From positions 1-56,390 of the forward strand of contig JTLS01000058.1 in NCBI GenBank assembly GCA_000826855.1: 56,390 bases of DNA, written 5' to 3'. Positions 9,698 through 52,200 of this stretch are shown here, one piece after another. The translations under genes and the position numbers were made by a program. The stretch is from Basidioascus undulatus. Taxonomy: Eukaryota. A model generated the notes under the pieces. That model was not told the origin of the DNA and ran no database searches. It saw nothing but the letters and a program-made list of their open reading frames with translations. Positions within the stretch are counted from its first letter, which is position 1. The number at the start of each line of letters is the position of its first letter.

Positions 9698-11517
9698 ATG
9701 GCACGCATTGCCACTCCGCCGCTTGGCGGACTGCGATCGGCGCCGATTTCTGCGCCTGGGTTCAACGACGACCTGGACGACGACGAGCCGTGGCTGACGG
9801 GCCCTCGCCCGATCAAGGCGCTGCCCAAGCGCCCTTCGCTCTCTGCCGGGCAGCACCAGACGCCTCCGCGAACCAAAGATCCGCCTCCCCTCCCGCGAGG
9901 AGGCGAAGCGGACACTGCGGCGGTGGTGCCTTCCAAGACGCCTTCGCTCGACTCGGGCCCGTCCGAGGACCAGCCCTCCCCGCCGTCCACGCCTATTTTC
10001 CGCTACACCCCGATCGACTTTAGCGCCTTCGAAGACGACGGCGGCGCAGGCGATTACGATCCTGATCTGGATGGATTCGGCTTCGCAGGGTACGTCGATC
10101 ATCATGCCGATGGAGGAGCGGGGAGCAAGAAGCGCAAGGTCCCTGCACCCGGTCAGCTCTCGCCCCTGCCCACTTCCCCGCCGTTCGCAGCGAGCCCGAT
10201 CCGCTCGCGCTCGCCCCGTATACCTGCGAGGGCTTCCCCGTCCGGCAAGCCCGAGAAACACCGCACCTCGCCCGCGGCGCTGGCGGTGCTGCGCAACAAG
10301 GACGCCATCAAGCGCAAGAAGCAGTCGGTGAGTCTTTCATCTTTGCGGTTCCTTGGGCGGAAGATGTTGAGGAGAGATCTGGATGGGTTTCAACAGATGG
10401 CGGCGGTCATGGGTGCGCTCTCGCTCGGCGACTCGCTCGCGCTCGAGTCGGCTCTCCTCGAAGCCGTACCAAGCGCGGCATCCGTCAAGGCCACTCCTGC
10501 CAAAACCCCTCCCTCGCCGACCTCTGCGTCCTCATCTCCTTCGAACTTCCCCGCAAGCGAGTTCGAGTTCGCCTGTCACAGCACCAGTACGTTCCTCTGC
10601 GGCACCTCGCATGCCTTCCTGCCGAATGCTTACTTGTTCTTCTCTCCAAGTCTCCGACCGTCTCGCCTCGATGCGCGAGGAGGTGGCCGTCCTCTCCGAG
10701 CGACTGGAGGCGGAGCTTGCGCGGGAGCGCAGCGCCAAGCCGCCCTCGTCTGCCAACGGTGACGTGGGCGCATCGTCGGCGGGCAATGGAGGCGGGGGGA
10801 AGATGCTCGTTGCGAAAGCGACGATGACGGTCGCGACGCAGACGACCGACCCTCCCCCGTCCGAATTCGAGACTGTCGGCGTCAAGATCATGACGCCCCG
10901 CCCGCTCGGCGAAGCCGAAGGTGCTTTCTTCACGCTTCCCCTAGCCATTTTCTAATCCATGCTGAGCCGCTGCCGCACTCTGCGCAGCTCCCGCCGCCGA
11001 TGCGCCTCGCCCATCGTCCAAGAAGAAGTCCTCGAAGAAGAACCGAGCGAACTCGTCCAACCCGCACCACGTCCGGAACTACGTCCCCGGGCGGACGAAG
11101 CCGTCGGCGACGCAGCAGACCGCGCCAGACGAGTCGACGCTCCTCTTCCCCGCTCCCCTGCGCTTCCTCTCCGCCGACAAGCCCGCGCCGCCCAACGCCG
11201 ACCCTGCGACGGCCATCTCGCCCGCCGACGAGTTCCTCTGCCCCTTCTGCGAGTACGCCATCTTCTTCGGCTCGACCGAGGCGATGCAGCGCGCAGTGCG
11301 TAAGCGCAAGAAGGTCCTCGCTACGCGCCGGAGGGCGCGCGAGCGTGCCGCCGCGGCGGCGAACGGGGTCGCGAGGGACAAGGGCGTGGACGGCGTGGAC
11401 GGCGATGGGCACGGCGAGGGGAAGAAGGGAAAGAAGGGAAAGAAGAAGGGCGCGGTGATCGTGCCGGTCATTGACGTTGGGACCAACACCGACTTTGCCG
11501 AGTTCATGCCGCCCTGA
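9698..11517 (+). CDS. Fungal hypothetical protein (low-complexity, basic clusters, CxxC motif)
   Basis: Long ORF from ATG 9698 with three GT-AG introns (about 10329-10396, 10587-10650, 10921-10987). Contains FPASEFEFACHS, RANSSNPHHVRNYVP and DEFLCPFCEYAIFFGS...RKRKKVLATRRRARER. Strong GC3 codon bias. Confidence 0.75.
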
Positions 11518-19820: not shown

Positions 19821-23126
<3,306 letters not shown>

Positions 23127-23651: not shown

Positions 23652-25109
23652 TTATTCCCTTCCCACCGTCCCGTAAACTTCCTTCCTTCTCTGGTCTGCG
23701 ATGCCCGATGCCTCACGATTGTCAGCGCCGAAAAATGTGTGTCTCTCACCAGACGGGATACGCACCCCACAACGGCATCTCCCTGCGGACCCGCGCAAGT
23801 TGATCGAGGTCAATGTCCGCGAGCGCCCAGACTGGCTTGTCCGTCGTCGACGGCGTCTGCGCGAGCACGTCACCCCAGGGAGAGACGATGAGCGAATGCC
23901 CGTACGAGACGCGCGTGGGCGTGTGCTGCCCTCTACGGTGAACGGACGGAGAGAGGCGAAAGGGGAAGCAAAGTCAGCAGGTGAGGAGGTACAGGGTAAC
24001 GAGAGAGCGAGGACGCACATTTGCGCAGCAGCGATCACGTATGTTTGAGTCTCGATTGCACGCGCACGAAGGAGTGTTTCTGACGGAAAGGATGGAGGAT
24101 TCGGGTCAGCGGTGCCATTCCCAGCCAGTCGCGATGGTGCAGCGAGGAAGACGAACGCCAATGCGCAGCGCCCTGGAGTATGACACGGCTTCTGATTAGC
24201 TGGCATCGCGAGTAATGACCCGGAGATCACTTACGGTCTTTACGGTGAAAGCTGAGGGGTATGTGATGATGTCGGCTCCTTTCCGACGAAGGATGAGAGA
24301 GGGCTCAGGGAAGCTGAAGGATCGACGCCCGAAAAGCGTATGTGTGAGAAGGTCTCTCGAGAGCAGTGGCTAGGGGTCGACATACCGCAAGTCATAGCAG
24401 GTCAGAGATCCGACTTGAGGGAAGCGTGAGCAGTCTGGGTCTGGCAGTGTGGAGCGAAGTGGACGCACTGGCGCCGATCGGTGATCGGGTGGGTTCGATG
24501 ATCTCCTTCCCTGGCTCAGTGGTGTTGCTTTCGAGGATCTTTAGCCCTCCTTTAATGTCCACATCAAACAGGTGTAGCTGTTGATGCCACCCTCCTAGTC
24601 AGGTTGGCGTAATCCGGACGTTGATAACCATGTTGATTCACCCACCTTCCGGTACGAGCTCTTCACCTCCCCGTCCGCCCCGATGATAACATGGGTGTTC
24701 CAGCAGCGGTTGTCCGTCGCTCCAGCCTCGTGCACACCGACGGAGACGAAGACATTTGCGTCTTGCGCTGCAGCGCGCAGAGGCGTAAGGAACGATGAGG
24801 ACGCGAGCGGCTCAGAGAGCTTGGGCACGTCCGTCGCCGCTGCGATGAAGTCTAGTCGCATTGGGTCTATCAGCTTGTTTGTACAAATCCAAAGACAACT
24901 TGATTCTTTGAAATGCAGACCGGAAGCCTCTGGCAAGAATACCGCCTTCGCGTCCGCCTCATGAGCTCGCCAGCCTATCGGACCTGACAGAAAGGGCGAC
25001 GCACCTTAGCACCCTGCGCCGCCGCTCCCGCTATAATCTGCACGCAAGCCGCTACATTTTCGCCGATGGTTGGCACGGCGCGAAATTGGCCGACGGCGGC
25101 GAGGACCAT
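23652..25109 (-). CDS. NIT2: Carbon-nitrogen hydrolase, Nit1/NIT2-type (deaminated glutathione amidase-like)
   Basis: MVLAAVGQF, catalytic triad motifs FLPEA (E), YRKLHLFDVD (K), TCYDLRFPE (C), then YPSAFTVKTGAAHW, LLRARAIETQTYVIAAAQ, SYGHSLIVSPWG. Confidence 0.88.
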
Positions 25110-32500: not shown

Positions 32501-35274
32501 TCATGAATCGAACAGTTCACTCCGCCACCCCGCCTTCTCTTCTGCCTGTCGCCGAACGACCCCCACCTCCTCCCTCAGATATCCCCCCAGCTCCCTAACC
32601 CTCCTGACCTTCCCATCCACATCTTGCACCTTGTCCTGAACTTCACAGACTTCCTCCAGCACCTCCCCCTCCGCCTCCTCCACGTGCCGCTCGATGCGCT
32701 CCACGCTCGTCTCCGGCCCCTTGTCCGCCTCGGGCAGCAGCAGCGGGGCCGTTCCGACCGCGATGGCCGTGTCTGACTCGAGGACCTCGGGCGCAGCCGA
32801 GTTGGTGGGGGGTACGATGGGCGAAGAAGAGGAGGACTCGTTCTGGGGAGGGAGCGTGTGGATGATACCATGTGTGGTGATCTGCGTGGCAGTGTGCGGG
32901 TCGGGAGAGAAAGGGGGCTTCGGCTTGGGGGAGCGCGAGCGCGGCGGGGCCGTTAAGAGCGCGGAGAAGTAAGCGGCCAGCCGGGAAGTCCGAGGACTTC
33001 GCAGACGCTTCGCCTCCGCCCGCCGATGGACCTCCCACGCGCGCTCGTCCAGCGCCCGCAGCCCTTGCCGCACTTGCTGCTCCACCGCGATCCGCACCAC
33101 CATGCGCAGCACGACCCTCGCGAGCGGCCGCAGAGCCCACGCGATGAGCGGGTGCGTTTCGCTCTGCAGCTTGATGTCCAGGTCGGGTATGCTGACGCGC
33201 ACGTCCGTGCGGTGCTCGTCGAAGAACGACTTGGGTCCCTCAGCGGCGGAAGAGGACGAAGGAGGAGGATGCGCGAGTTCCGCGTCCACTTCGACGCTGA
33301 GCCCGCGTTCACCGAGGGAGAGCGAGAGGAGTCCGCGCTCGGTGAGCGTGAGGGGCGGGAGGCAGGCGGAGATGGGATTGGGAAGGCGGGAAGCGAGGTA
33401 GAAGGAGAGGTGCGAGAGGGTGAGTTGGAGGGAAGTGAGCGTCAGGTGGACGCGCGAGGCGAAGGGCGGGGGCGGCTCGGGGGTGGAAGGGTGTGGGGAG
33501 GGATGGAGCGTGAGAGTCGGCGATGCGGAGACGGAGAGCGTGGAGGGTAGGATGGAAAGGGAGGTGAGGATCAGGTCGTCGAGGACGAAGTCGAGCGTTG
33601 GGGAAGAGAACTCCGTTCTGCGCAGCCGAGGTAAATTGTCGATCAGTCTGCCCGCCGTCGAGACACATGGTCTAGACTTCAACGCACCTCGGTATAGGAA
33701 CCTCTTTCAAGAACCCCATCAATTGCGGCAAAGCCACGTTCAACGCGTCTTTCCACAGCCCGCCCACGCTGCCGGTCAACGCGCCCCAACCCACAGCCAG
33801 CCCGTTCCCCAGCTCCGCCCCGAGCGCCTGCACCGCACGGACCAGTCTCCACAGCTCCTCATCATTCTTTACGCCAGACACGAAAGCCTCGACCTCGTCC
33901 CGCAGCGTCCGAAGCGCAGCGCGGAATGCCGGTTCTTTCTCCAGCAGCGTCGCGAGGCGGTCGTACAGTCCTTCCGCGTCCACTCGCGCGCGACGCGAGT
34001 GCGCGTACGGCACATCGGTGAAGAGGTGGGAGAGGAAGGAGTCGAGGTCGGAGAGCCAGGCTTGGACGTTGGAGGAGTCGTGCGCGGATTCGGCGAGGCG
34101 CTGGAAGGTGGTGGGGAGGTGGGTGAAAGAGTGGGAGGAGATGGAGGAGAGGAGGCGGGTGAAAGACTGGAAGGCGGAGAGGATGTGCGAGTCGGGATCG
34201 GAGAGTGTCGCGGAGGGGTGGATGGAGGATGGGAAGGAGGAGGCCGTGTCGGCTGTGCGCGAGGCGATAATGAGATACTTGCGCAAGAGCGCGAGGAGGG
34301 TCTGCAACGCTGGCAGGACGTCCGGATTCGCTTGTATTCGAGATAGGAGCTAAGACCGCGGGATTCGCTTGTATTCGAGATAGGAGCTAAGACCGCGAGA
34401 TCAGCTGGACGAGACAAGAATTGCGAATAGCATGAGAAGACATACACGCTGAAGTCGTTCCAGCGCCAACTCCCTCGCCTCCGTCTCGGCAGCTTGCTCC
34501 ACCTTATCCCTCACATCCCCAGCATGCTCCTGCACCTCCTCGAAAGCTTCCTTGCTGTATTTCATTCCCTCCCTCTGCTCAGGCCGAAGGACGTCGGCAG
34601 CATGTCCCACAGCGGCCTTGATTCCCTCGGCTGTGTCGGCGAGGAAGTCGCGCGTGAAGAGGAGCGCGGACGAGAGGAGGGCGGTGGACTCGGAGAGGAC
34701 GGAGGTGAGAAATGTTAGAGTTAGGGAAGCGACTGACGCGAGGAGGAGTGATGCATCATGTTGCATAGAGGTCGTGGAGAGGTCCGAGGGCAGGGAGGGG
34801 AGATCTGTCGCGGTGCGGAGGCCGTGTAAGCGGCGTACTGAGAGGACCGGATGGGTACACTTCACCGATATCGATGTCGTAATCGAGCTCCGCCTCGCGT
34901 ATATGGTAAACGAGCTCCTGAACGGCCTCATGCTCTACATCTCTCCTCAGTCAGCATTCCGTGTAGCCGATAGCAGCAAACCACGCACCATTTCTGAGCC
35001 TCACGAACTCTCTCCCCGCCTCCAGCACTTCCCTTGTCCGCCTGACAGCCCCCATTCTCTCATCACTCAGCGGCCCTCCGACTCTAAGCGCCCCACTCCC
35101 TAGGTCGAGCGCGTCCGAACTGAGCGCGCAATCGAGGAGCGCAACGAGCTGCGCGTCGGTCGGGAGCTTCCCAGCGCGCAGGGCGCCGATAACGGCAGCG
35201 AGGCGGAAGGGAGTCGCGCTGGCTGGTGTGGAACTCGGGCTGCTGAGGAGCGGGGTGCGCTCAGATATGGACAT
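32501..35274 (-). CDS. HAM1/DUF4449-like fungal protein; one splice acceptor is duplicated
   Basis: LAAVIGALRAGKLPTDAQL near the N-terminus, LLRKY, LWKDALNVALPQLMGFLKEVPIPRTEFSSPTLDFVLDDL, and a long final exon ending WRSELFDS. Family assigned from recalled motifs only. Confidence 0.7.
34324..34397. repeat. Perfect 37-bp direct tandem duplication
   Basis: GGATTCGCTTGTATTCGAGATAGGAGCTAAGACCGCG occurs at 34324-34360 and again at 34361-34397. Confidence 0.97.
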
Positions 35275-36250
35275 TACTTGCTCGATAATGGTGGTGGTTT
35301 AGGCGAGATAGGAGGTGCGTTTGTGGAGCTCTGAAAGCGGACTGCATGGCGCTCCGCGTGATCGACCTGCCCGCCTGTGCCGACAAACTAACCTTTCTGC
35401 AGCTTCAAGGCTACCAACTATCGAACTCCATAGCTCGGAAAGCTGCAATATGAACTTCATAAAGGTGAATGAATTCCTCTTGTGTAGTTGGAAGAGGCTG
35501 CTGCCTGTCGACATAGTCACGATAATGCCTGTAACACACTGCAAGTTGGCTCAGACCCAATCAGTCGGATTGCAGAAGAGGATTTTTTCCCTAGATTCAA
35601 GTCATCTAGTCTCTTAAAAATTACAAGCAGAACTGAGGCTTGAAGGCTACACTGGCGCATTGGTCCTAGCAGGCTCGCTCGCCACGCGCGAGCCTCATCC
35701 CCTCATGATTTAGCAGTAGGCCGGGTGCCGCGGCGAATGTGCCGATTCAGGGAAGTTAAAGTTAAGGACAATCTCACTTTTTCATTAGGCCATGTTTCCC
35801 AGTCGTAGCCTGGTACGTCTTCACCAGTGTCGCCTGCCACGCTCGCCGCACAACGTTCCTGGCGTGCAGAACACGGGGATCATACGGGCTGTCAGCTCGG
35901 AACAAGCCAATTAGACCGCCATTTCCGGTATAAAATGCTTCTTACGATTGCAATGTATCTTCGATTTTAGCGGCCCAGCGAGCGGCTCGTGTAAGCTAGC
36001 TCGCGTCGTGCGCTCACAGACGCAGATCCCCTGCTTTCATCCACCACCCCAAGAGATTGATTCAGGCCTTGTCTAAAAGTCATATGTTTCCAAACTGGTG
36101 GGTATGTTTGAACACCAGGCGACCTAGACGAGCGACATCTTCCGGAGACGTGATTCGCTGTGGTATGCACCGAGCTGTGTGGACTGCCACCGTGGAAACG
36201 GCTTTCTTGCTTGAGAGACCCCCCCCCCCCCCNGGGCTACAACTTTTGGT

Positions 36251-38906
36251 TCAAACCTCATTAACGTCGTGCAACTTCTCTCGAAGCTTTCTTGGTGCGT
36301 CCTGACCGGGCGTCCCGCTGCCGCAGTAAAAGCTGGACGCCTCGTTCGGGGTGCCTGCGCCCTTGTAGGTGGGGATAAGAGGGTACTGGGGGCGGTTGAC
36401 GGATCATCAGTGTCACCAAGATTGAGTCGCAAAAATTCTACTCACCTTGCAGATCGGCCGAGTGAACTCGACCTCTCCAGAAGTCGCGTTGTTGTCCTTG
36501 AAGTGCGCAGCGATGAGCGACTCCGGCGCCTCGCCCTGCTCGACCCACTGTAGGAGGGCGAGCAGGACGTCGTGCGAAGCGTCCTTCTAAATGCTGGGTC
36601 TCTTCGGGGTCTGGCCGAACTGCATGTATGCAAGAGATGGAGTCAGCGATTGAGCACGTTCAGAAATCGCAACGGGAAACTGTCTCGCACCGAGTTTGTA
36701 CCCGGACCACCCTGCGCACGTTGGCCGGTATCTTCAGTGACTATCTTAAGTTAAGTAATAAAATAATACACACCTGGCAGTGATACATCCCAGGGACGTT
36801 GAAAAGCCGGTAGAAGCCGTCCATCTCGACGCCATGTCGGGTCTTCATTGTCGTCTGAACTTGCTCGTAGTAATGGTACGAGTTGCCCGTCGAGTTGAGG
36901 GCCTATTATTGCCCCATCGTATGGGCATTCAGTACCAGTAAACCTGGGTTGTCACCTCGGAACTTACGTCGTTCGCACCCACGAAGTGGATGACCTTGCC
37001 CTTGCGCGGTCCCAATGCGTAGGGGCCGAGGTCCGGGTTGATGGCCTGGAAGATGATTCAGACACCGCAATCCGCAGATAACGGGACCAGGTTGCAGGCT
37101 TACACTAATCGCTCCAGGGTCGATAGCGTCGGCCAGCTCGAGGTCGGCCAAAGTGAAGTTGGAGGGCTGCCACGTAGTGTCACTGTCATGCATTGTAAAT
37201 GAGCTCCTCGCAACCACAGAGTAAGATATCCCCTACTCACTTGAAGACAAGATACTTGAAGGTCTGCTGTCCTAGAGCGTAAATGCTAGGCGAGTCGCCA
37301 TAGAACGACGCAACGCCCCCAGGTCCCAGCTCGCCGCCGGGGTACAGTCCGCTGAAAAGATCTGCATGCGTATTCCAATCATCGTGTAAGAACGTTTCTT
37401 GAAAATTGAACGACAAAGACCTACGTTTACCGTCGGCGTCTACCCAAGGGCTGTACAACTTGCGCAGAGCGACGATCTGCGGTGCCGTGAGGCACGTTGA
37501 GGCATTCTGACCAGGAGCGCAGGCCAGCGTCTCGGGACGGAAGCTACAAAGCAGATCATGAGCATACCCAGCCGAGAAAAGGGAGATAAACTGTACCTGC
37601 AGCGGGTTGGCTCTGTGACAATACCGTCCTCGATCTGGAAGCGTTCGGTCGCCGTCAGAATGCAGTACATTGAGTGAAAATGTGTGTGGACGTTTACCCC
37701 GTCCAACCCGTCGCATTGCTGCAAAACCTCAGCGCCGATCACTTCCCATAGCAAAGAAGGGATGTGGGCAGAATTTGATTCCTGAAGATAAGCCGTTAAC
37801 GGATTTGATGATAATACTGACTGACACAGTGGACAAACTAACGGCGGGGTACAGGTAGTTCCCATACTGAACGTTCCAAGCGTTGAGGTGCGTCCACCAG
37901 TTTGCAGGCGAGCCGACGACCTGCGTATCACAGAAGATGTTAACTGTGATCGGTTCCAATGCTGCCCAGCAGACTCACAGCACCGTCGAAAAAGTCGGGG
38001 TAGTCTTGAATCATCTTGAGCCTGAAAGAGACGTCTGTGTCACTTCGAAGGCCAGCGACCTGCCTCGCCTCTTGAACTGACCCTTGCTTGCCACCCTGAA
38101 AGATTTGAAATGTTGCTTCAGTTAACGCTCCAAACACACAGCCAACTCGGAACACACGGCCAACATGAGTACTTACAGACGAGCAACCGAAGTAGTAGCT
38201 GTGGTCCGCAGACTTGCCATAGTACGCCTCCGTGACGTGCTTGGCGACCACGATACTGTTGGCAAGCGCTCGTCCACCAAAATCAATTGCTCCTTCCTAA
38301 TCAAGTCAAGTAGATCTTCAGTAAACTGTACAGGAAGCGATGAGAGCGAGAAGCCTGACCGGGTTGTTCAGAAGCAGGGAGCCATCATCCCGGTCGTAAC
38401 CGCCGTTCATACTGACCCCTACGAAGCCATACCTGTCGCGCATTGCAAGATATGATATCAGTATTAAGCCTCGGATTTCTATAACAATATTCCAGACTTA
38501 CGAAATGGCATTGTACCCGAGCGATGGATAGTTAACACCGCCGGCCCAGCCGCCATTCCCGACGGTGAGAAATCGTGAGTTCCACTCGTCGGGCAGCCAC
38601 ACCTCAGCTCGAGCCGAATGGTTCGTTATAGTCGGAACGTTCAATTGAAGACCTGCTCTTGGGGTTAGCGGTGGGAGGATCAAGCACTTTTTCAGGAGAA
38701 GGGGACGTACGGCAGAATGCTGGAAGCTCCGTTGTCGAAATCTCGTAGGCAGCATCTGTGACGTTTACGAGCTCTCCGGCGTGGTAGTAATGGGCGGCGT
38801 CCAGAAAAGCTGAAACTGCAGGTGGAAGTGCGAAGCTCTCGCAGGGATGTTTCCAGGCGGTTGCCGAGGATGCTAGGATGGCGAGTAAGGCGGCGAGGGA
38901 GGACAT
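36251..38906 (-). CDS. Secreted tannase / feruloyl esterase family hydrolase; in-frame TAG near the C-terminus (possible pseudogene allele)
   Basis: Signal peptide, LPAFCR, EVWLPDEWNSRFLTVGNGGWAGG, nucleophile motif YFGCSSGGKQG, QCDGLDGIEDG, HFVGAND (Asp), FYRLFNVPGMYHC (His), HDVLLALLQWVE, FTRPICKYP. The 3' end is approximate and lies next to an N at 36233. Confidence 0.88.
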
Positions 38907-39412
38907 GATTGCGTTGAAAGAACGACACGTAGGTCTCCCATGCGCTGCTTATAGCTTCATAGACAGCCTCACGTGATTCTTAAGCTCGGGAGAGCCTCGG
39001 AAGATGCCAGCCGCAAGATGGAGTGCAACGACGCATGACCGAAATGGAAGACGTGAGGACGAGGAGGGAGCAGGATAACCCGGGACACCAAAGCATACAC
39101 CGCTCCTGCTGACGGTCTAATACCACAGGCTCAAATGTCTCTTTTTTTCACGAGGTGTAGGCATCACAGGGTCTCCCAGTCTTCAGCAGGCTTCTTGAGA
39201 TCGCCTGCGTTAATGTGCTGATTCGCCGCGAAAGCATATCGAGAAGAAAATCCTCGTCTGCCGCATCCAACATATCTGCTCTGCAGACACGATGAATATC
39301 AACAGGCGTTGAATAGCCTCCTCATCGTTTATGCATCTCATGCTGCCATCGAACCTCATGATAATACAAATACATAGAAAGCAGTGCCGCATGTCCCACC
39401 CGGCAAACCGCT

Positions 39413-42049
39413 TCAAATGGCAAGCTTGAAATCAGGGTGCCTTGAACCCAGGTCGAAGATCTCTTCCGCTGACTTCGTTTCCACGAACCCAAGTTGAACA
39501 TAGTCAGCACAAAGTTCAGTGTAAGAGATCCGGACGGCAGCAAGCGCACCTTTCCCTCCAACCGATGGTCGCGTTCTCCGGCCGCTCGCTGCTTGTTCTC
39601 CCAAGTGTTGTAGAGAACGCCGACGAGCGCGCAAAGGAAGACGCCGGTAGTGCTTCCTATGTTGATGGAATTTCCACGTACATAATCGGCTGCAATATCC
39701 AGTGTCAGAAATGAGGTTGGACAGAGGGCGTCTGAGACGTACGGGCATCGCCAGGCAGGTATGTCCCTGTGGGTCAATATGACGGATTCAGTCATGGAGC
39801 TAGAAAAACTGCGGCAAATTAAGTAGGCTCGACCTACAAGTGGCGATGATAGAACCGATGCTTGAGACGCCGGGAATGATCTGGTTACGTGAAACGTTCA
39901 GAAGAGCTTCGGCCCAGCGAGACTTGAAAGCATGTACCGCGCTAGACACGGCGCGAACTGAGTCTGGGGCCGTGTTGTTGGAACCCCATGCGAGGAAAAA
40001 CTTTTTCAAGAGGGTCAGTTTGAGCTCGGACTCCATCACAACTGGATAACAACTCACGGGCCCAATAGGGAAAGCCCCAACTGCGGTGAGGAATGCCGCA
40101 GCATAGCGCACCTGCAAGTCTTTACTCCCAAGGAACATGCAATATCTGTTTTTTGGTCAGTATTCAAGCAGGAAAGTGAGTTCGACACATGAGAGAGCGG
40201 ACCCGACGATAGCCAGAGTAATGGATCCCATAACGACATAACCTCGACGGTTGATGCGGTTGGATAGATAAGCCGTCAAAAGCGACCAAACCTGGTAAAT
40301 TTCAAAGTCAACTCAGTTGAATACTTTAAGGGCTCGAATAGGGGCTGCTCACAAATGCAACGACGTAAGGGGGAACAGTCCGAAGCTGAACTTCGACCGT
40401 GCTCTTTCCGGGATTCAGACCCCGGACAATAGTAGGCATGAATAGAGCCAGCTATGAAGCAAACCCGCTTGAGCTTCAAGGAGATCCAACAAATCAATCA
40501 AGACGTACCCCTTGCACAGAGATGTTGCAGAGCGTGAAAGCTAACGTGAAAAGCCAGGTGTTGAAGTCCGTGAGACCACGCTTGATCAGCTCCCACTTAA
40601 ATTACAAAGAGCGCTTTCAGCACAGAATCCGCTCCGCTGATAAGTGACAGCACAGACCTTGGGCTTGTCGCTGGATGCCTGTGCCCCAATGGTTTCCGCC
40701 TGGACGCGGGCGATGGCCAGAGCTGCAAGAAGGCCTCGTGTCAGCCAAATCTTCCAAGCCACTCTGCCGGTAGGTCTGTTCGTGTCTGCGTGAGCACCTA
40801 ACTTTCTCGTCTTGGGTGAGGAACCAGGCCGTCGACGGCTCCGAAGCCAAGACGAAATACATGGCAAAGCCAATGGCGATACTGGCTAGCCCTTCAATGA
40901 AGAAGATCATCTGCCAGGTATGCAGCGACCCAATATGGTCGATCTTTAATATGGCCCCGGCGAGCAGGCCCTGTTAAAAACGTGTCAGCGCGCGCAACCA
41001 GCGTCTGCTGGTTCATGGGACATCTTACTCCGAAAGCACCGCTCAAGGCGATAGCAGACACGAAGAAGCCGATCCTGAAAACAAGCTACCGTTCCAGAAG
41101 AAGGTCAGAATGGGATTAAGATGGGGCGGGAAACGCGGGAAATAAAAGAGAGTGACAGCCTTGCAGTCGTTCTGTCGCAAGGTGCAAACCCAACAGTTAG
41201 GAGAACGCATTCTGCTCACCTCGCTGCGACGATAAAAGCGAGAGAGCCACAGCGTGATTCCTGTGCGACAAGTTTAGATGCCTCTTCATCATGTTCGCAA
41301 TGTTCGCAGAGGGGTGGGCTCAGACTTACCACAGATTACCCCGCCTTCCGTCAATCCAAGCATCAAGCGAGCGGCGAGCAATCCCCCGTAGTTCGTGAGC
41401 CACGCCTGGCACATCGTTACGCTCCCGAATGAGAATATGAGGACAGGAAACCAGAGCTTGGCTCCGACAATCTTCAAAGCCATGTCTGTAAGGGAGAACG
41501 TGTCAGTCCAATGTGACGCGGAAATCGCCAAGAGTTTGGCGCACTCGAGGGAATTTCGACCAGAGTGTACGTCTGTACCCGGAATTTCTGTAAGTCACTT
41601 CTACTCAATCTCACAAGTAGTATCTAATTACAATATATAGCACAGTTAGAGATACCGAATATTGATGTCCGGTAAGTCCAAGGTCCTTCTCCATGCCAGC
41701 GATCCGCGCATTGCCTGCGTTTCTTGTGAGCACACGAAGCCTGTTACTTTTTCGGAATTGCGTACCGATGTTTGTCCGATCGAGAGCAGTAATCAGATAG
41801 ATGATCCAGGCCGCTGGGAGAAGCCAGAGGTCCATCTACCACCGCATCCCGAAGAGAATTCAGTGTTGACAGCGTACGCAGTTGGTAGAAGATGCATAGG
41901 CAGCCTACCTTTTGAACCACAGCCCGATTGGCTTTGACATCATTGAGAAGGGGATGTAATTGCACTGACGGTGCGTTCTCGAATCTCTCCGCGTACTCCC
42001 GCTTCGCCTCGTATTCCTGGTTCGAGCCGGACTCCAGCGCCTTCTCCAT
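39413..42049 (-). CDS. MFS transporter, anion:cation symporter (ACS; DAL5/TNA1-like) family; one defective splice donor
   Basis: LDRTNIGNARIAGMEKDLGL, EIPSN, LSRFYRRSELVFRIG, WQMIFFIEG, AWFLTQDEK, TVPPYV, WENKQR, LGSRHPDFK. Multi-exon; frame problem at 40801-40802. Confidence 0.9.
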
Positions 42050-43613
42050 ATTTGTGTCGACTGTGCGCAGTGGCTAAGAAGCCGAGGACCGGGTATGTAG
42101 CAGACTGAAGTGTGGGGTAATTGTAGGGTTTGTGGGGAATGAGAAGCGAGAAGGTCGAAAGGCTGAAAGATAAGTGCTCCGGAGAAGTGTTCCTGCGATC
42201 CAGGTCATGAACCGTTTGCTGGGATCACGGCGCACAGTGATTCAACTGCGTCCACGTGAGCTCAACTACCAGACAACGCACACTTGCGGCTGGCATCAGC
42301 CGGCAAAAGTTAAATGTTGCCCAGGCACTCGGTAGTTCACGCATGAGCCGTATTGACCGCCTGATCAATGGCTAGTGATGGAGGCAACTGTATACGCAAC
42401 CTGCGGGCCGCACCCTCCGAAGGGCATGGCTGTATTTCACCGAGTGGTCTTGAGCCAAGTTGAGCCTCATCTTTGAAGATTTCCAATTGTATTGTTTGAA
42501 ATGAAAAGTGAGCCTTTCAATATTTGTATGGTCAAGCCGTAAAGCACACTCAAGAGTCTTGAGTCAAGACGGATCTGTCAACATGCGGCGAACTACCCAT
42601 CGGAAAGCAGGACTGCTTCGTCGAGGACTCGGGATGGGACCACGGCACTTGCCAATGCCAGGTTCCTGGTGTGTACGGCCATTCAAAGTATATAAAAAAC
42701 AATTAACACCGGATCTAGTGGTCTGTCGAGGAAACAGACGCGGGCCACTTCCATGAGTGGTGAGGCGGTCAGGATGTCTATGTGAAATGGTCTACATTTG
42801 CAGGGTTTCTTTCCTCCCTATCAGTCCTGGAGGAAACGGCTTGAAAATACAATTAAATTCTCCAAACCATCATTCAGTTTCTTAACGTCAGCCAGTTCGA
42901 ATCATCTCATAATCCGCTGTACGGCTACATCAGCGGACCCAATCGGTACTCGCACCTGTCTAGTCATCTTTGAGGAGATACTTTTCTTTCAAAAAAAAAC
43001 CGAAATACCCACTTGCTTATAGAGCTGAGGAGATTTTCGCGGACTTGCTTTCAGGTAATGTTGTCCTCTCAACCCGAAATGCATCGAGTTAGCCTGTGCT
43101 TTCGGACATGGAGCCTTCGTGTCAAGGAAGTTAAATATCACCCAATCCAGTCTGAGAACAGTTCATTTTCCTGTTTGCGAATGTCGGTGGCGCAGGCTGG
43201 TCCCAAGATCCACCCCTGAGAAGCCGCTGTCAAAGTCGGATGGGCCATCCCAACCGGTCCTTGCGGCGTAAAACCCGAGATACTGTACATTCGGTTCAGG
43301 AAAGGCAGTGTATTCACGTTGAGGGTTCTATTGAGTGGGCTTCGACGCGCTGGTTATCCTCAGAGAGTTGTTCAAGAGGACAATAGAAATGAGGACGACC
43401 GGCTTGCGCAAGGCTTGCTTCGATCTCGCCCGGCTGGCATTACCCGCGCCGTCGGCGCCGGATACGGTGCATGGCTTACCGGCGACAGCACCGATCTTGT
43501 TGGCCGTTTGCCCGGTTTTTCTACCTCTCCTCATCCTCTTGTTCTCACACGTTTTCTCGCAACTCACTTGCTTTGCTTCGCTCGTCGGTCCTCACCTCGA
43601 TCATCCCAACATC

Positions 43614-45529
43614 ATGGAGCGCCTCCAACAAATCGCTACTCACCTCACTCCTTCGCGCGGCGGCGTCGCCGCGCTGCAACGAAAGTCGGCGGACGATATT
43701 GTTCGTCTAATTCCTAAGCTGCGGTCACGGAAATGCAAGAAGCAATGCTGAATGCTGCTCGGCAGGTTGTGACACTTGCCGTGCGCAGCCCGATGTGCAA
43801 GGCGTGGAAGGGTCAGCTCAAGGACACTCGGTAAGTCCACACATGTTCTAATGACGGTCGGAAATGCGTGCTAATCCACGTCGCTTCTTTCTGTCCCAGG
43901 GCCGACGAGCTGTTGACCTCCCTGTACAAGGTAGGCCTTAGGGCTCCTCCTCGCGTGCCAAGCGTCATGCTGATTCTTCCGTCCACCTTGAATCAAGGCC
44001 GTAATCATGGAGTGCAATTTCGACCCAGCACTTGTCCAGGACATTACCGTGGGCAACGTTCTTGCGCCGGGACAGGGATACGTGGGTAAGACTCGAAGTG
44101 GCGTACTTGTATCTCTGCATTGCCTTACGACACTCGCATCTGCAGCTCGTGCTTCTGCCCTAGCCGCCGGGTTCCCCGAGTCGACTACCACCCAAGTCAT
44201 CAACCGCTTCTGTAGGTCAAGTTTCCTTCTCTGTCCCCCTCGTATAATCAGCCAGACTGCGTTTGTCGGCGTCTTCTGCTGACCCTCCTCGCGTTCCCAC
44301 AGGCTCCTCGGGTCTCATGGCTGTCAACACCGTCGCGAACCAGATTCGGGCGGGACAGATTGATATCGGCCTAGCCATTGGGGTCGAGAGCATGAGCGCT
44401 CAGAAGGACGAAGGCGCGCCGCAGTTCTCGGACGATCTCATGGCGCACCAGGCGGCCGCGGACTGCAGGCAACCCATGGGCTGGACGAGGTATGGTGCCT
44501 GCATCGCCAAGGATTCAGATGGCTGATAACGAGTTCGGAATACATAGCGAGAACGTTGCTGCGGACTTCAACATCTCTCGCGAGGACATGGACAAGTTTG
44601 CAGCCCTGTACGTAGCTTCCCCTGTTACGACGAACCATCTCCGCTGACTCCATATATCCGCAGCTCACACACCCGGGCTGCAGCTGCTCAAGCCGCTGGC
44701 CACTTTGAGCGTGAAATCGTCCCGATCGAGTCGTTCCAGAAGGACGCCTCGACGGGCGAGCGTCGTCGTGTCGTTATCTCTCGGGACGACGGCATCCGGG
44801 GCGACGCGACCCCCGAGAAGCTTGGCAAGATTCGCGCGGCGTTCCCTCAGTGGGGTGCGGGGCGTACCACGGGCGGCAACGCCAGCCAGATCACCGACGG
44901 TGGCGCCGCAGTCATGCTTATGACCCGGAGGCGGGCGGAGCAGCTGGGCCTGAAAATTTTGGCGAAGTACATTACGACTGCGACTGTTGGTGCGTCCGGA
45001 TGGACACTCAGCTTCTTACGAAACGTTATCTTACACGGAGACTCTCACTTCAGGTCTCGCTCCCCGCATTATGGGCATCGGTCCCTCGCTGGCTATCCCG
45101 AAGGTGCTCGAGCAGGCGGGCCTCAAAAAGGATGATGTCGACCTCTTCGAGGTCATTTTTCGTTCTCCCTCACTCACCATCATTAAAAACCATTCTAAAA
45201 CTTTGTCTCCTAGATTAACGAGGCCTTCGCGTCGATGTATGTCTATTGCGTGCGCCATCTCGGCCTGGACATTGACAAGGTCAATGTCAACGGCGGTGCG
45301 ATCGCGCTGGGGTAAGTCCTTAAATGTCTACATCTGAAATACCTTCTTCACCCCACGGCATCAGTACTGAATCGATGGCACGACTCCCAGACACCCCCTC
45401 GGCTGCACGGGCGCCCGTCAGGTCGCGACGGGCCTGAACGAGCTCGAGCGCCGGAATGGCAAGGTGCTCGTGACGTCGATGTGCATTGGACTGGGAATGG
45501 GTGCTGCCGCTGTTTTTGTTCGGGATTAG
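43614..45529 (+). CDS. POT1: Peroxisomal 3-ketoacyl-CoA thiolase with N-terminal PTS2
   Basis: PTS2 RLQQIATHL, catalytic [50 protein letters not shown]. All exons join in frame. The symbol marks the family; exact paralog not established. Confidence 0.93.
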
Positions 45530-46180
45530 ACAGCACTGGTTGATGTACTACGTATCAAGTTGCATGCACGGCGTGGACGCCAACTGTAGCGCTCGCCCGC
45601 TGCCGTCCAGTCTGAGGCTTTTCAAAGCACCGGCCTGTAGCATCCAGATTTTTGTCGGAGTTCTACATGAAAGAGAGTCTGTTAACCAAGCGTTAGCGTC
45701 CCGTGATAGACAATCCCACGAAGACTGCACCGGCACACCGTCGGCTTTCATTCTGCGAAACTGGTTGCACCCAGAAGATGCTATCGGAACCGCCATATTT
45801 TGAATAAGTAGTATCTGCATGAAAATACGGACATGGATCCCACAGCTCTGGCACTGCACCTACTTGTACAGTACTTCGACGTGCCGGCCGGCCGGGTTGT
45901 GGCGTCGGCTGGCATTCTCCGACATGCAATCGTCCAACGCCAGCGCACAGCGCACAACCTCACAACTTCACATGACCTCACAGCTCATGGCCGACAACGC
46001 TTCTAAGGACGACGCCTCCATCAGGCTGGCATTATCCGAAGCGGAATCGTGACACTCTTCCCAGCAGACACTCGCAGCCGAGTTACTTGACCGGCTTCGT
46101 TCAACTCGAACTACCTCGCCTTCGATTCTTTCACCAATCGCGCTCTCGATACTCACCTTCCATTTCGCTCGGTCAATATC

Positions 46181-48731
46181 ATGGACTCGCAGCCTCCCTC
46201 GACCTCTCGCATAGTCCAACACAAAGTTGGAGCTGCAGCCTCGAGCCAGCGCCCCGCTGCACTCGGGTCTCCGTTCGAATTTCAGGTCCCTGTCGAGAAT
46301 GCCTTGTAAGTATTTCTACAACGGTTATCTTGCGGGTTTACATCACTGAACACTAAACCCACCAATCAACAGCACCTTCCTCTTCTCCTCGCCCTGGACG
46401 CGCACGAACCGCGTTGTGCAAGCCCTCCCCGCGCAACTCTCCGCGCACGCGCACACTCGTCCCGTCCCGCCCCAAACGCCGATCTTCCACTCCCCCCAAA
46501 CCGGCTCGACCCTCTCCTTCGCCCTCCTGCACTCGCTCTCCCTCCGCATCGCAGCCGGCCTCTCCTCCCTCCAGCCGCAGCCGCCGAATGGAACTTCGAA
46601 GCAGCCCACGATCCTCCTGCACCTCCCCAACTCACTAGCGTTCCCTTCGCTCGTCTTTGGCGCGCTCGCTGCAAAATGGATCGTTACGATGGCGAACCCC
46701 GCGCTCGCCGTGCGCGAGCTCGCGCATATCGTTAGGGAGGCAAGGCCGGACGTGGTCGTTACCACTGCGGGTGCGGACGGGAGGGGTCGGATCGAAGACG
46801 CTTGGAAGGAGAGCGGTATCGGGGGCAAGGCGCCGAAGCTGTTTATTGTGCGCGGGGTGGATGGGCTAGGCGGGTTCCCGGTTGAGGGACACGAGGTGCC
46901 GGAGAAGGACGACTGGAGGGCGTTACTGGAGAAGTGGCCGCAGCCGACTTTCAAGGTCGCTCCGATGGTACGTCTCTAGCTCTAACATAATCAATCCAGG
47001 AAGCTGACACTCCCGAGTAAATTAGACGGAACAGCAGCAGCGCGAGACGATCGCTTTCATCCTCTGGTCGTCGGGCACGACCGGCAAGTCGAAGGGCGTC
47101 ATCCTCTCACACCACGGCATCGTGTCGCAGGCCGTCGCGCTGTGGGCGGGAAACCCGGTGTTCGGAGAGCGTGAGGTAAGTTTCAAGTTGGGAAACGCTG
47201 TTTGTGCTTGATGAGTCTGACCACAGTGTTTGCCGTTGCCCACACAGATCTTCTGCGGTCTGCCGCCGTTCTTCCACACTTTTGGACTGGGAAACATCCT
47301 GCTTCTCGTGCGTTGCTTTTTCTAAACAAGCTTTGTGCTATTCCTTACACTAAAACTCTTATGCTACACTCACGCAGGCCCCCACACTCGGTGCAACAGT
47401 CGTCCTCTTCCCGAAAGTGCGTTTCCCACATTACCATCTCACATTCATCCTTGTTCTCTAACTCCTCCTTCACAACCCGCCGCAGTTCGACCTCCCCTCC
47501 TACCTCTCCCTCATCTCGACGTACCGTCTTACGCACCTGCACATCGTCCCGCCCATCGCCGTGCAACTCGCCAAGTCGCCGCTGGTTTCGCAACCAGGTG
47601 TCAACTTCAGCAGCGTCACGGGCGTGTGCTCGGGCGGCGCGCCGCTTGGAGCGGAGGTCATTCGGGAGGTGTGGAGGAGGTGCGGGGTGGTCGTTAAGAT
47701 GGGGTGAGTCGTTTGTTTTTGTTGGTGGGACGAGGAAATTGCGGAACTGAAACTGACACTGTGGTTGGGGGAAGGTATGGGACGTCCGAGACGGGCTCCA
47801 TTACGACGATGGTGGGCGATGCGTGGGGCGAGATCGAGCCGCAGCTGGGAAGTACCGGTTCGCCGCTGCATGGACTGAAGGTCAAGATTATTCGCCCGGA
47901 CGGGTCCAGTGCGTCGTGCCTTCCGCCTCTTATCCCCCTCCATCTTCTCCCTGTGTCGCCTTCTCGGCTCGGACTGAATGTTGCGTCTTATAGCCGCCAA
48001 CATCGGCGAGGCAGGGGAGATCCTTGTCAAGTCTCCGCTGCAGATGCTGGGCTACGTGAACAACGAGGAGGCGACGCGGGAGACGATCGACCAGGACGGG
48101 TGGATTCATACTGGCGATGTGGGGATCGTCGATGAGGGCGAGCGGATCTGGATCGTTGACCGGCTGAAGGAGGTCATCAAGGTGTGTACAGCTTCGCGTT
48201 GTGACTGCGTTGCATCTCGGGCGCTGACGACCTGTCGTTCTTTATAGTACAAAGGGTGCGTCTCGAGGTTTCACTTTCGACTTTGGTACCAAATTCACAT
48301 TCTTTCTCTTCTCTTCGCTACCAGCTTCCAAGTCTCCCCCTCCGAGCTAGACGCCGTTCTGAACTCGCTTCCGAGCGTCGCGGACGCAGGCACGACGAGC
48401 GTGTACTCCGCTTCCGAGGGGACCGAGCTCCCCATCGCGTACGTCGCCCAGCGGCAGGCGGGCGCGGACCCGCGCGCGCTCGCGCAGGAGATCCGGGAAT
48501 GGACCGAGAAGAACCTGGCGAAGTACAAGTGGCTGAGGGCGGGCGTGGTCGTTTGTGAGGCGATTCCGAGGAACCCGAGGTGCGTGGACAGGGAGGGAAG
48601 GGCGCGCTGGATGGGTGCGATGCTGATTTGTGGGGGCTGGGAGGAACAGTGGGAAGATTCTGAGGCGGGAGTTGAAGAACGTCAAGGGCTTGCATGTCGA
48701 GCTGTACCCGAAGAGGGAGTCGAAGCTGTAG
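46181..48731 (+). CDS. 4-coumarate:CoA ligase-like acyl/aryl-CoA synthetase with C-terminal PTS1 (SKL)
   Basis: AMP-binding [70 protein letters not shown]. Ends ...PKRESKL-stop. Includes an 8-nt micro-exon (48248-48255). Confidence 0.92.
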
Positions 48732-49227
48732 AGTAGACCGGGATGTTTTTGCCGGATTTCTTGCGAGAAAATAAATGACTAGGACTTGTGACAACTTGTC
48801 AAGCGTTTTCGAAAGTACTGCACTGCATCCAGACTATTGGCAACGGCCCGAACCGCGTTACGTCGGGTGTCTCAGTCATTTAGCAGGCGTTTGCAGGAAG
48901 TGCTTACCTAATTCTCCTCGCACCAGTCCTCACAATGAAAAATAAACGACTGGAATGTTATGTTGACAAACAAGGATATCGAGATTTGCCGGCTGTATCT
49001 TTGCGTTTCAGAATTGTACACAGCCACATGTCGGGCACCCCTGGAATCAATGGTGTGCGTCGTGGCGTCAGCGCGCCCAAGCGGTTGAGCGTGCCCGCAA
49101 CTCGCATTCCCCCATTGTACACTCACCGATTCGATCCCCCCCGCCCTTGCTTCCCACCATCACCATCATAGACGCTCCAAACGACTGAGCACGACCGAAT
49201 ACAAGACTAGAGAGATTACCGCCCGCA

Positions 49228-52200
49228 ATGCCGGCTCTGACGCTTCCACTCAGTGCGTTCCGGCCATTCCGGGGCGCTCATCCGACCGCCCCATCGGGCT
49301 GCAGCACCGTGCTGATGGTCGGCGGGGAGCACAGCATTTTCGAATAGCTTCTGGACGCCGGATTACAGGAAGGGCCTGGAGCTGCTGTTCGGCAAGCTTG
49401 AGCAGGGCGTAGTGGAGAATGAGGAGGTCGTCGGGCTCCTGAAGGTGAGCTGAGCTGGCATGCCTTCTACGATTCGATGGAGCGGCGGACGATAGAGATA
49501 TGGACCAACGGGGACTGTAACGGACTATACCGCATCATGCGAAACGCTCAGGGATAAAGCCTGATGCTAAGCCCTCATGCAGCCGTACTGATACAACCAT
49601 CTCCAGGCCCGTGCTGCTGCCGCCCAGTCGCACTCGCGTGCGCTCACCTCGCTCCCCGCCCCGCGCCGCAGCGGCTTCGCCCTCTCCTCCACGTCCCCCA
49701 GCACGCTCAGTACGTCTTTCGCTGCGCTGCATGCGGCGTCCGCGGACGAGGGCGCTGCGTACGCGGCGCTTGCGACCGCGCTCGAGCGGCACGCGAAGCA
49801 GTTTGGCGACTGGGCGGAGGGGCACAAAGACCGCATTCGGGGGAGCAAGGCTGCCCTGTTGGATGGCTGGGTTTTAGGATGGGAGGAGGGCAAGGTCGAG
49901 GTGCGTCCTTGTGTCCTTGTGTGGAAGTGTAGCTCGAAAGGGGCGACTAACGGGTTGGCGATGTGGACAGCTGGAGAAGCTCAAGGCGACGCTCGACAAG
50001 AAGCTTCGGGCCGCGGACGAAGCGGATGAGGACGCCAAGTTCGCGCCCGTCGAGGACCCGGTCTCCCCGCCGCCTACGTCTCCCCCCTCTGAGAAGTCCG
50101 AGAAAGCGCTCGGCAAGCAACCTGAGAAGCTCCCCGCCCCGCCCTCTAAGCCGCCGTCGCTCCCCCCGCTCGACACGGCCGACACCGCGCCGCTCGAGCC
50201 CATCATCCTCGCCGGCGTGCCGTTTGCGCCGAAGGACTTGAGCGCGCTCCTCAAGCGCGCGTCGGAGGAGCTTCCTGGCCAGGTGGTCAAGGTGCCGTTC
50301 TTGGGCGAGTACCAGGTGGGTTCCATTGGCGTGATGATGGGTCATCTGCGGCGCACTGACAAGATCACCGTGTGGTGTTGTATCAGGACTGCTACTCTGG
50401 TGAGGACCTCACCAACTGGTTTCTAGCCAAGGTGGCCGACTTCAACGGTAGCGCCGACAAGGTCGTCGAGGCGTGCAGCGCGCTCGCCGAGGACCTCGAG
50501 CTCTTCCGCCGCATCGGCGGGCTGGGCAACAAGTTCGAGCCCAAGTGTGTTCTCATCAATTTCGCCCTCTGGTCTCACGCATGTTCCTGACACCCTTCTC
50601 GCTTTTGCTCCATAGGTCCGACTGGTTCTACCAGTTCCGCCCGAAAGCGTTCGAGCTGGAAGATGCACTCTACTCGGCGCGCTCGCAGCCCGTGGGGACC
50701 CCGCTCCTCTCCACGCCGGCAGCGGTCTTCTCCTCGCCGGTCCTTCCCTCTTCGACGAACGTCCAGGCGCGCGTTGGCTCGCTCCTCCAGCGTGCGGGCT
50801 CGCTCCGCACGGCGCTGACGGGCGCGAACCCGAACGAGCCGCCGCGCGTGCGCGCGCGGCGCGAGGCGGACAAAGCCAAGGCCGAGTATGAGGGCGCGCT
50901 CAAGAGGCAGGAGAGGCAGCGGCTCAGCGTCGAGGAGCGCGTGGAGGAGGCGCTGAGGGCGCTGCAGAGGTGCGAGTTAGACAGGCTCAGGGCGATCAAG
51001 ACTGGTGAGTCGTGTTCTCTCCTTCTCTTTTTCCCTTCCCGAAATACTCATGTGCTCTTCACGTTTGTAGTCCTTGGGGCCTACGAGTCCACCCTGAAGG
51101 CGATACACACCTCGCTGGGCACCGCGCTCGAGTCCTCGGCCGTCGCGGTACAGACGTACCAGCCCGAGCACGACCTGTCGTCGCTCGTCGAGCGCCACCG
51201 GACGGGCGCGTTCCGCCCCGCGCCGCACATCGTCGGCCGCCACGACCTCAGCCTCTTCGGCGGCGACCTCCGCAAGCTCGTCCGCGCCGGCGAGGAGGAG
51301 GGCAAGGACCGCGAGGTGCCGGAGGTGCTCGCGGCGCTGCTGGCTGCGCTGGAGGTGACGCTGGGGAAGGTCGAGGAGGATGAGCGTGAGTCAATGATAC
51401 TACCTTGACAACGCATTGAGCGCCAGCTGATAAGATGGTTGAGGACACAGAAAAGCGCAAGAGCTGGATCTTTGAGGGTGCGCCGGTATGTCTTTTCGCA
51501 GCAACAACAGTACAGCTGAACATCCTTCTTTCATCTTATCTCCAGTCCCTCTCTCCGCAACGCATCACGTCCGCGAGTCGCTCAACGCCCTCCCGAAGCC
51601 GTTCAGCGCCTCCGTGGAGTCCACGCTCGCCGTCCTGGCAAAGTACGACGCGCCCGTGCTCGCGTCCGCTATCAAGCTGTGGGCGCTCGAGCTCGACCCG
51701 CCCCTGGGCGGCTACGACGCGTGGGAGGACGCGCGCGCCGTGTACCCGTCCGTAGGCGCCGAGGGCGTCGAGGTCGCCGTTGACGACGTTAGGAAGGCGC
51801 TCGAGAAGACGCCGCTCGTGAATGCTGTTGCTCTGGAGGCTGTGCTGGGCCACTTGAAGAAGTACTTTGAGACGATTGGGTCGGATCCGGGCTGAGGTGC
51901 TGAGTGTTCGGTTGGCGGCTGCAGCTTGGTGGTTTCCACGAAGTCGGACGAGACGGACGAGGTGTTCTTTACTAAGCTCGCGCTGTGCTTGGGCCGAGGT
52001 ACGTTTCCACAGCATTTTCTCGAACAAAGCCTTACAGGCCGAGGTGTTTGCAGTCTTCTTCCGCCCTCGCGTCGAGACGGACATCACCCTGCAGGAGCGT
52101 CACATCACGCCGCTCTTGATAGACTTGATTCGGAGGCACGACGAAGTCCTGCCGCCCGTGAGTCATCCATCATTCTGTCGAGCACCCTTCCCTGTTATCG

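Follow-up and report, generated by a model that had tools for sequence, protein, structure and literature searches.

Arrangement of the block and its promoter element

The 56,390-nucleotide contig JTLS01000058.1 of Basidioascus undulatus, termed the window and equal to the entire contig C2524 of a 32-Mb assembly in 2992 contigs, contains four adjoining genes of the tannase/feruloyl esterase, ACS-family MFS transporter, peroxisomal 3-ketoacyl-coenzyme A (CoA) thiolase and peroxisomal 4CL-like CoA ligase types, each preceded by a copy of one 16-bp element (Table 1). A first-pass annotation made from the sequence had described four consecutive genes with no recognisable gene between them, the esterase and transporter on the minus strand and the thiolase and ligase on the plus strand, diverging from a 1.56-kb gap. 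The gene models agree with this layout and with the size of the gap, and no Pfam family is found in the open reading frames (ORFs) tested between the block genes. The shared element was missed at that stage, as were apparent lesions in the esterase and transporter genes.

The block (36222-49500) is covered without gaps by a single contig of the DNA run X1, which may itself be the source of the window DNA. Run X3, whose library is not on record, yields spliced contigs that bridge all 10 thiolase introns, at least three transporter introns and several ligase junctions. An 8-nt micro-exon in the ligase gene (48248-48255) is also backed by an X3 contig.

The element in the four block promoters, CGGCTGGCATnnnCCG, has the form CGG-CTGGCAT-nnn-CCG. 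The repeated word was first spotted by eye and then tested by enumerating every k-mer common to the four upstream regions, with the divergent gap halved between the transporter and thiolase by the analyst's choice. This leaves a single common 10-mer, CGGCTGGCAT. A 9- or 10-mer common to the four promoters arises in 0 of 2000 Markov shuffles and an 8-mer in 13 of 2000; the 10-mer itself occurs four times in the window compared with 0.17 expected, a count reached in none of 100 shuffles. Each of the four 10-mer sites extends to inverted CGG triplets separated by a 10-bp spacer. Exact copies of the full element number 10 across the 32-Mb genome, four of them within this 7-kb block. Elsewhere in the 56-kb window there is no copy with intact ends at up to three mismatches, and none of the six other Pfam-labelled window genes, from the amine oxidase to the RhoGAP gene, carries it. 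One element common to all four promoters supports the co-regulation that had been supposed for the block.

Put3 recognizes inverted CGG triplets with a 10-bp spacer, and Gal4/Put3-type sites have a fixed spacer length; in the block elements seven of the spacer bases (CTGGCAT) are fixed as well. The CGG-N10-CCG arrangement has what we take to be the geometry of Zn2Cys6 sites, and the element is predicted to be a Zn2Cys6-like site with a putative cognate factor of that type. The FarA site CCTCGG was rejected as the common element, being present 59 times in the window compared with 46.5 expected and missing from two promoters: it occurs in the block promoters only at 38995 and 42082, with none in 42831-43613 or 45530-46180.

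Table 1. Coordinates of the block genes, promoter elements and apparent lesions; PTS2, type 2 peroxisomal targeting signal.
Feature	Position	Strand	Description
Tannase/feruloyl esterase	38906..36251	-	17 exons, 550 codons; Pfam Tannase PF07519; in-frame stop in best-supported splice model
ACS-family MFS transporter	42049..39413	-	about 18 exons; TIGR00893/HpaX matches
Peroxisomal 3-ketoacyl-CoA thiolase	43614..45529	+	11 exons, 414 aa, PTS2; Pfam Thiolase_N/C; intact
Peroxisomal 4CL-like CoA ligase	46181..48731	+	11 exons, 617 aa, C-terminal SKL; Pfam AMP-binding, AMP-binding_C; intact
Divergent intergenic region	42050..43613	none	1564 bp; contains two element copies
Element CGGCTGGCATCTTCCG	38998..39013	-	91 bp before esterase ATG
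Element CGGCTGGCATCAGCCG	42287..42302	+	237 bp before transporter ATG
Element CGGCTGGCATTACCCG	43431..43446	+	167 bp before thiolase ATG
Element CGGCTGGCATTCTCCG	45906..45921	+	259 bp before ligase ATG
One-mismatch copy AGGCTGGCATTATCCG	46023..46038	+	142 bp before ligase ATG; within the stretch of an X3 contig starting at 45931
In-frame TAG in esterase	36587..36589	-	codon 459, using canonical intron 36690-36620; 91 codons remain after it
Lesion intron in transporter	40723..40802	-	phase-1 GT donor in C2055 paralogue, phase-0 GT only in window gene

Family assignments of the four block genes

The ligase groups with 4CL/PCS60-like proteins and lies on a long branch within a widespread fungal group (SH-aLRT 100), separate from two 4CL-like paralogues of its own genome (the copy number of the ligase being based on a single-exon query) and from four distant outgroup loci; this tree and that of the thiolase are quick trees. 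The group is found in Microbotryomycetes, Auriculariales, Jaapia, rusts and Sordariomycetes, and every one of its 106 full-length members has xKL or xRL at the C terminus. Its Neurospora member NCU02485 is listed in the CLR-1 plant-wall regulon table of PMC4620465. The Rhodotorula toruloides member, P0163 (RHTO0S04e00848g), is 41% identical to the window ligase. The best matches of the window ligase are Aureobasidium proteins. The R. toruloides annotation has 17 AMP-binding genes, and 16635 is the only one whose BLAST note names an Aureobasidium protein; the C terminus of 16635, AKL, is the same as that of P0163. Indirectly, through this match of P0163 to 16635, the window ligase would belong to the group of an enzyme listed as p-coumarate-CoA ligase in PMC10398944, for which PMC7873862 gives mutant fitness values of -1.77 (coumarate), -3.60 (ferulate) and -0.20 (oleate) and whose mRNA on coumarate rises from log2 4.27 to 9.22. 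Horizontal acquisition of the ligase from ascomycetes, an idea prompted by the Aureobasidium matches, is not supported: the group is widespread and the tree lacks nesting in ascomycetes.

The thiolase has the N-terminal PTS2 RLQQIATHL and is 65-72% identical to basidiomycete proteins. It groups with Dacrymycetes (SH-aLRT 97), a one-gene placement by which the host basidiomycete probably lies near that class. The genome holds three POT1-like thiolases: the window copy, C2240 (60% identity) and C2884 (50%). Gelatoporia 110489 (P0097) shares 70.8% identity with the window thiolase and 50.8% with C2884, and is also the best match (69.8%) of RTO4_9065 in the supplement of PMC11822028. In R. toruloides the mutant fitness of 9065 is -5.61 with coumarate, -3.43 with ferulate and -0.29 with oleate, and its mRNA on coumarate rises from log2 6.88 to 10.20. 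From these identities and fitness values the window thiolase would be of the class needed for hydroxycinnamates, and C2884 looks like the fatty-acid class. Assignment of the window gene as the housekeeping POT1 was rejected since the genome has a separate POT1-type copy, C2884, from which the window copy stands apart. The C2240 thiolase (4915-6960) is of the same class as the window copy but lies on a long branch and has neither PTS2 nor element. At position 44806 in thiolase exon 8 both X1 and X3 read T and the window G, probably a window error or an allele.

The esterase model has a hydrophobic N-terminal leader together with GCSSGG, GANDA and MYHC motifs, which we assign by what we take to be the CS-D-HC catalytic set of the tannase/feruloyl esterase family. 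It is 44-45% identical to the fungal homologues P0245/P0242, and its C-terminal exon matches PDB entries 8bhh, 6fat, 9hun and 6g21. The gene is a member of the secreted tannase/feruloyl esterase family with a predicted complete catalytic set. A third tannase-family gene, on C882 (2576-4756), gives guided models with shifts or stops, either real or an alignment artefact. The transporter exons match TIGR00893 and HpaX/TIGR02332 with E values of 1e-7 and 1e-8, below the whole-protein cut-offs since the scan covered only exons, and the gene has a close paralogue on contig C2055. Its intron 41086-41219, bridged by X3, measures 134 nt, roughly double what is usual here. The only tannase-family gene listed for R. 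toruloides, 12455, goes up on coumarate from log2 1.33 to 10.04; as 12455, 9065 and 16635 all rise, three of the four block families are co-induced in a distant basidiomycete.

The element elsewhere in the genome

The first-pass annotation supposed that a hydratase and a dehydrogenase would be supplied in trans, and candidates for both lie on other contigs, each with the element or a variant. An exact site is located 109 bp before a PTS2 short-chain dehydrogenase gene on C2325 (RLAQVSGHI), and a 2-mismatch site 136 bp before a stand-alone MaoC hydratase gene on C2734 ending SKL; the other two MaoC loci of the genome are FOX2 and the fatty-acid synthase. R. toruloides has the same split pair, PTS2 dehydrogenase 10551 and dehydratase 9469, and 10551 is both induced and needed (fitness -1.65 and -2.26). 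A nitronate-monooxygenase-family gene whose product ends in SKL has a further exact site (C623:15640) 355 bp ahead of it; the product could, at a guess, be a peroxisomal enoyl reductase of the pathway. Two exact elements (1085 and 5007), 3.9 kb apart, lie in the neighbourhood of a pantothenate kinase gene on C2484 and have no clear target.

A scan of 22 candidate loci at up to two mismatches gave five sites, two of them in promoters, namely that before the C2734 hydratase and a 2-mismatch site 127 bp before the 4CL-like paralogue on C2389; the latter lies at C2389:11920, between the paralogue and a divergent gene that presumably resembles a type II dehydroquinase. In the stretches retrieved, where some promoters are cut by contig ends, the enoyl-CoA hydratase loci, the intradiol dioxygenase and the C2240 thiolase have no upstream site at this threshold. 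The lists of exact and looser-pattern sites contain none at FOX2 (C601), the POT1-type thiolase (C2884) or the C2240 thiolase, which speaks against a regulon for fatty acids in general.

The looser pattern CGGCNNGCATNNNCCG, chosen after the hydratase site had been seen, has 36 genome sites, all of which were retrieved, compared with 18 for the reversed control. Outside the block there are 32, of which seven precede candidate pathway genes: the short-chain dehydrogenase, the hydratase, the monooxygenase-family gene, the 4CL-like paralogue, a PMP22-like gene and two diverged DUF3237 genes. None of the 18 control sites precedes a comparable gene, one being inside a PEX3 exon and several at unannotated loci; the sorting of pattern and control sites was not blind. 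The PMP22-like gene, on C210, presumably resembles PMP22/Mpv17, and Pfam and Atlas searches with it found nothing. Several degenerate sites within coding exons (e.g. on C2690 and C1579) were counted as chance.

Three DUF3237 copies were found (L185 on C2382, L135 on C2542 and L192 on C2502), all frameshifted or stopped, and two of them keep an element variant about 77 and 113 bp upstream. Compared by blastn, these two element-bearing regions match only over 19 bp at the element. Coumarate strongly induces all three DUF3237 genes of R. toruloides, and bacterial members of the family act on lignin dimers (PMC12607616). In the closely related Sordariomycete-like loci L012 and L013 a CGG-N10-CCG with two mismatches to the element lies about 250 bp upstream of the ligase orthologue, and L011 and L014 have none, a weak hint of wider conservation of the element.

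Proposed function of the block and its alternatives

The block is likely to be a co-regulated catabolic module, or regulon, for hydroxycinnamates (p-coumarate, ferulate, caffeate), found in one genome so far. From its family and promoter, the secreted esterase would free the acids from plant esters, and on the same grounds the ACS transporter would import them, the weakest step of the scheme. The ligase, with a type 1 peroxisomal targeting signal (PTS1) and a group with mutant data in another species, would form the CoA thioester in the peroxisome, where the unlinked hydratase and PTS2 dehydrogenase would make the 3-oxoacyl-CoA. The PTS2 thiolase, judged by its group, would then remove acetyl-CoA to leave hydroxybenzoyl- or vanilloyl-CoA. 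One dimeric Zn2Cys6-type activator, encoded outside the window, may bind CGG-CTGGCAT-nnn-CCG in all these promoters. The cluster would have arisen independently of Aspergillus hcsA-katA, and its peroxisomal core is intact, with the esterase and transporter possibly damaged recently in this strain. The substrate class named in the first-pass annotation fits the way the ligase and thiolase group with R. toruloides enzymes for coumarate and ferulate, the ligase match being indirect. Its module of release, uptake, activation and chain shortening stands in part: the activation and cleavage pair is intact and a common element speaks for co-regulation, whereas the release and uptake genes are possibly decaying and the genes are unlinked in the genomes checked.

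The closest known system is the peroxisomal p-coumarate/ferulate pathway of R. toruloides (16635, 9469/16515, 10551/10558 and 9065; PMC7873862), which is like the block in its thiolase class and, by the indirect match, its ligase group. In both, a stand-alone hydratase and a PTS2 dehydrogenase replace FOX2, and tannase-family and DUF3237 genes of R. toruloides respond to the same substrate. The R. toruloides genes are spread over scaffolds 9, 1, 2, 10 and 13, whereas here the ligase, thiolase, esterase and transporter are contiguous, and 9065 has no targeting signal in the table of PMC7873862, whereas that of the window thiolase is clear. No cis-element or regulator of the R. toruloides pathway was found in the literature searched.

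The hcsA-katA system of Aspergillus niger (PMC8140964, PMC10512302) also has a peroxisomal ligase gene adjoining that of a dedicated thiolase, with hydratase and dehydrogenase in trans; in the window the two genes are likewise direct neighbours, in tandem on the plus strand (45529 to 46181). The feruloyl esterase gene faeB belongs to the same A. niger regulatory circuit (PMC10512302), comparable with the block esterase. The A. niger system includes foxA and theA-D and uses a fused FoxA (PMC8140964, PMC10512302); faeB induction needs FarA and FarD, and CCTCGG is proposed for faeB, hcsA, katA and foxA (PMC10512302). According to PMC8140964, hcsA and katA adjoin each other in 37 of 50 Eurotiomycetes and the pair is confined to that class, to which the KatA clade is also nearly confined; HcsA is placed with Fat1/FatA-C, and most basidiomycetes lack it. 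Indirectly, by that placement, the window ligase is set apart from the Fat1/FATP (HcsA) family, whose R. toruloides FAT1 orthologue is 9912. The block is a system that would work like hcsA-katA without membership in it.

A 2017 survey of 556 genomes (bioRxiv 10.1101/184242) predicts an esterase-anchored ferulic acid esterase cluster class of at least four genes, similar to the block. It differs in its main text, from which the words thiolase and ligase are absent, and its supplements may hold a similar model. Phenylpropanoid-degradation clusters in the survey are 89.4% from Pezizomycotina and 4.7% from Agaricomycetes, and PMC12891635 only proposes homologues in Cutaneotrichosporon. The literature searched, judged by title and with most subscription journals outside its coverage, contains no description of the arrangement or the element. 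A ligase-thiolase pair for the pathway, with a ligase of another family, has already been described in Eurotiomycetes (PMC8140964).

Several observations weigh against the proposed function. Linkage of the four genes in relatives is absent where it was looked for, in three distant basidiomycetes and four ascomycete loci: the R. toruloides genes are on scaffolds 9, 1 and 2, the ligase and thiolase are on contigs differing in length in Auricularia subglabra and Meredithblackwellia, and none of four fungal ligase loci from metagenomes has a thiolase, tannase or MFS match within the 7-22 kb examined. Among the metagenome matches listed (80 loci), 76 are distant, apparently bacterial 4CL-like genes and the four fungal orthologues are all ascomycete-like. 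All that this comparison speaks against is an ancient, widespread cluster, and a lineage-restricted one is possible. The equation of P0163 with 16635 is made through a BLAST note and the AKL end, and the ligase, about 41% identical to any relative and on a long branch, may have shifted in specificity. Domain and targeting signal, not alignment, are the basis for equating the short-chain dehydrogenase and hydratase with 10551 and 9469; 9469 is induced, yet its mutants have no fitness defect, and both R. toruloides nitronate-monooxygenase genes are uninduced by coumarate at the mRNA level. Four of the six exact sites outside the block have no clear pathway gene, and it is the promoter alone that ties the transporter to the substrate. 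Lastly, the esterase has an in-frame TAG with 91 downstream codons that still match solved esterases, and the transporter has no in-phase donor near 40802, so that use of the canonical acceptor gives a frameshift.

These lesions allow a variant of the proposed function, which they qualify and with which it is compatible: the same regulon may be half dead, with the esterase and transporter as pseudogenes or null alleles and only the ligase-thiolase pair at work, and the chances of this appear even. In its favor, the stop falls well before the end of the esterase, the transporter lacks the phase-1 donor of its paralogue, and all three DUF3237 copies, two with an upstream element, are frameshifted or stopped. 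X1, the possible source of the window DNA, has no alternative letter at the TAG. The one X3 contig on the esterase (238 nt) is unspliced through predicted intron 37596-37544; esterase stretches that X3 leaves uncovered, and contig depths throughout, are given no weight. The esterase homologue search among representatives gave seven fragments, and the PDB alignments begin just past the stop region. However, a perfect element is kept in both promoters, three transporter introns are bridged by X3, and weaker splice sites could restore the frame in both genes (weaker acceptors for the transporter). Some lesions lie at G runs, making assembly error possible, and 11 other modelled genes are without stop or shift, a lenient control as its aligner also routed round the transporter lesion. 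Decay at the edge of the regulon or assembly error may each explain the lesions. The esterase and transporter families named in the first-pass annotation are borne out, and both genes may be non-functional in this strain, given the TAG and the missing donor.

A regulon with other substrates (cinnamate, phenylalanine-derived acids, phenylpropionate, lignin dimers, or aliphatic suberin or cutin pieces) is unlikely. The divergence of the ligase would allow it, as would the flagging of 9065 for phenylalanine too, the action of bacterial DUF3237 proteins on lignin dimers, and the element before the PTS1 nitronate-monooxygenase-family gene, which belongs to a family that coumarate does not induce in R. 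toruloides. Against these stand FOX2 and the POT1-type thiolase, which lack the element, and the match of the element-bearing families to the R. toruloides coumarate response, DUF3237 included. That the four genes are chance neighbours without common control is very improbable: conserved linkage is missing in the genomes checked and both enzyme groups occur widely, as a rule without linkage, but the element stands once per promoter, is otherwise absent from the window at the threshold given above, and also marks the missing pathway steps. Least probable of all is a biosynthetic module for benzoyl-type starter units of a secondary metabolite, since CoA ligase and thiolase chemistry can yield benzoyl-CoA but the 143 window ORFs scanned contain no polyketide synthase, peptide synthetase or ammonia-lyase family, and a secreted esterase and an importer indicate catabolism.

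Beyond the hydroxycinnamate module itself, a more far-reaching account is tentative and somewhat doubtful. The element would be the putative site of a hydroxycinnamate-responsive Zn2Cys6 activator distinct from FarA and possibly Dikarya-wide, and the block would have been assembled independently in early-branching Agaricomycotina, convergent with hcsA-katA, its outer genes now decaying.

Little is settled about how ferulate and p-coumarate are sensed and consumed in basidiomycetes; the enzymes are known through mutant screens in R. toruloides. The most useful new feature is the 16-bp element tying the block to the rest of the pathway: being defined, it makes the regulator directly testable, offers a candidate phenolic-inducible promoter for basidiomycete hosts, and names a candidate importer and further pathway members. 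Should the more far-reaching account hold, the element would also place the ACS transporter, DUF3237 proteins and a nitronate-monooxygenase-family enzyme of the peroxisome in the catabolism of phenolics by fungi. With a ligase from another family than that of Aspergillus, the ligase-thiolase pair would clearly exemplify convergent clustering, and clusters of this kind are reported as rare in the phylum.

In the surrounding window the left neighbour of the block is HAM1-like (32504-35298) and the right neighbour a RhoGAP gene (51476-51895), both housekeeping types unrelated to the block by Pfam. Other Pfam-labelled genes are an amine oxidase (6651-7510), an S10 carboxypeptidase (12495-12947), Cdc48 (19996-22937) and a carbon-nitrogen hydrolase (24598-25005). 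On an apparently bacterial metagenome contig, L046, a tannase-like ORF (87-572) lies about 8 kb from a 4CL-like ligase (8796-10337). A poly-C run at 36219-36236, with the sole N of the window (36233), is located just beyond the esterase stop at the junction of two X1 contigs.

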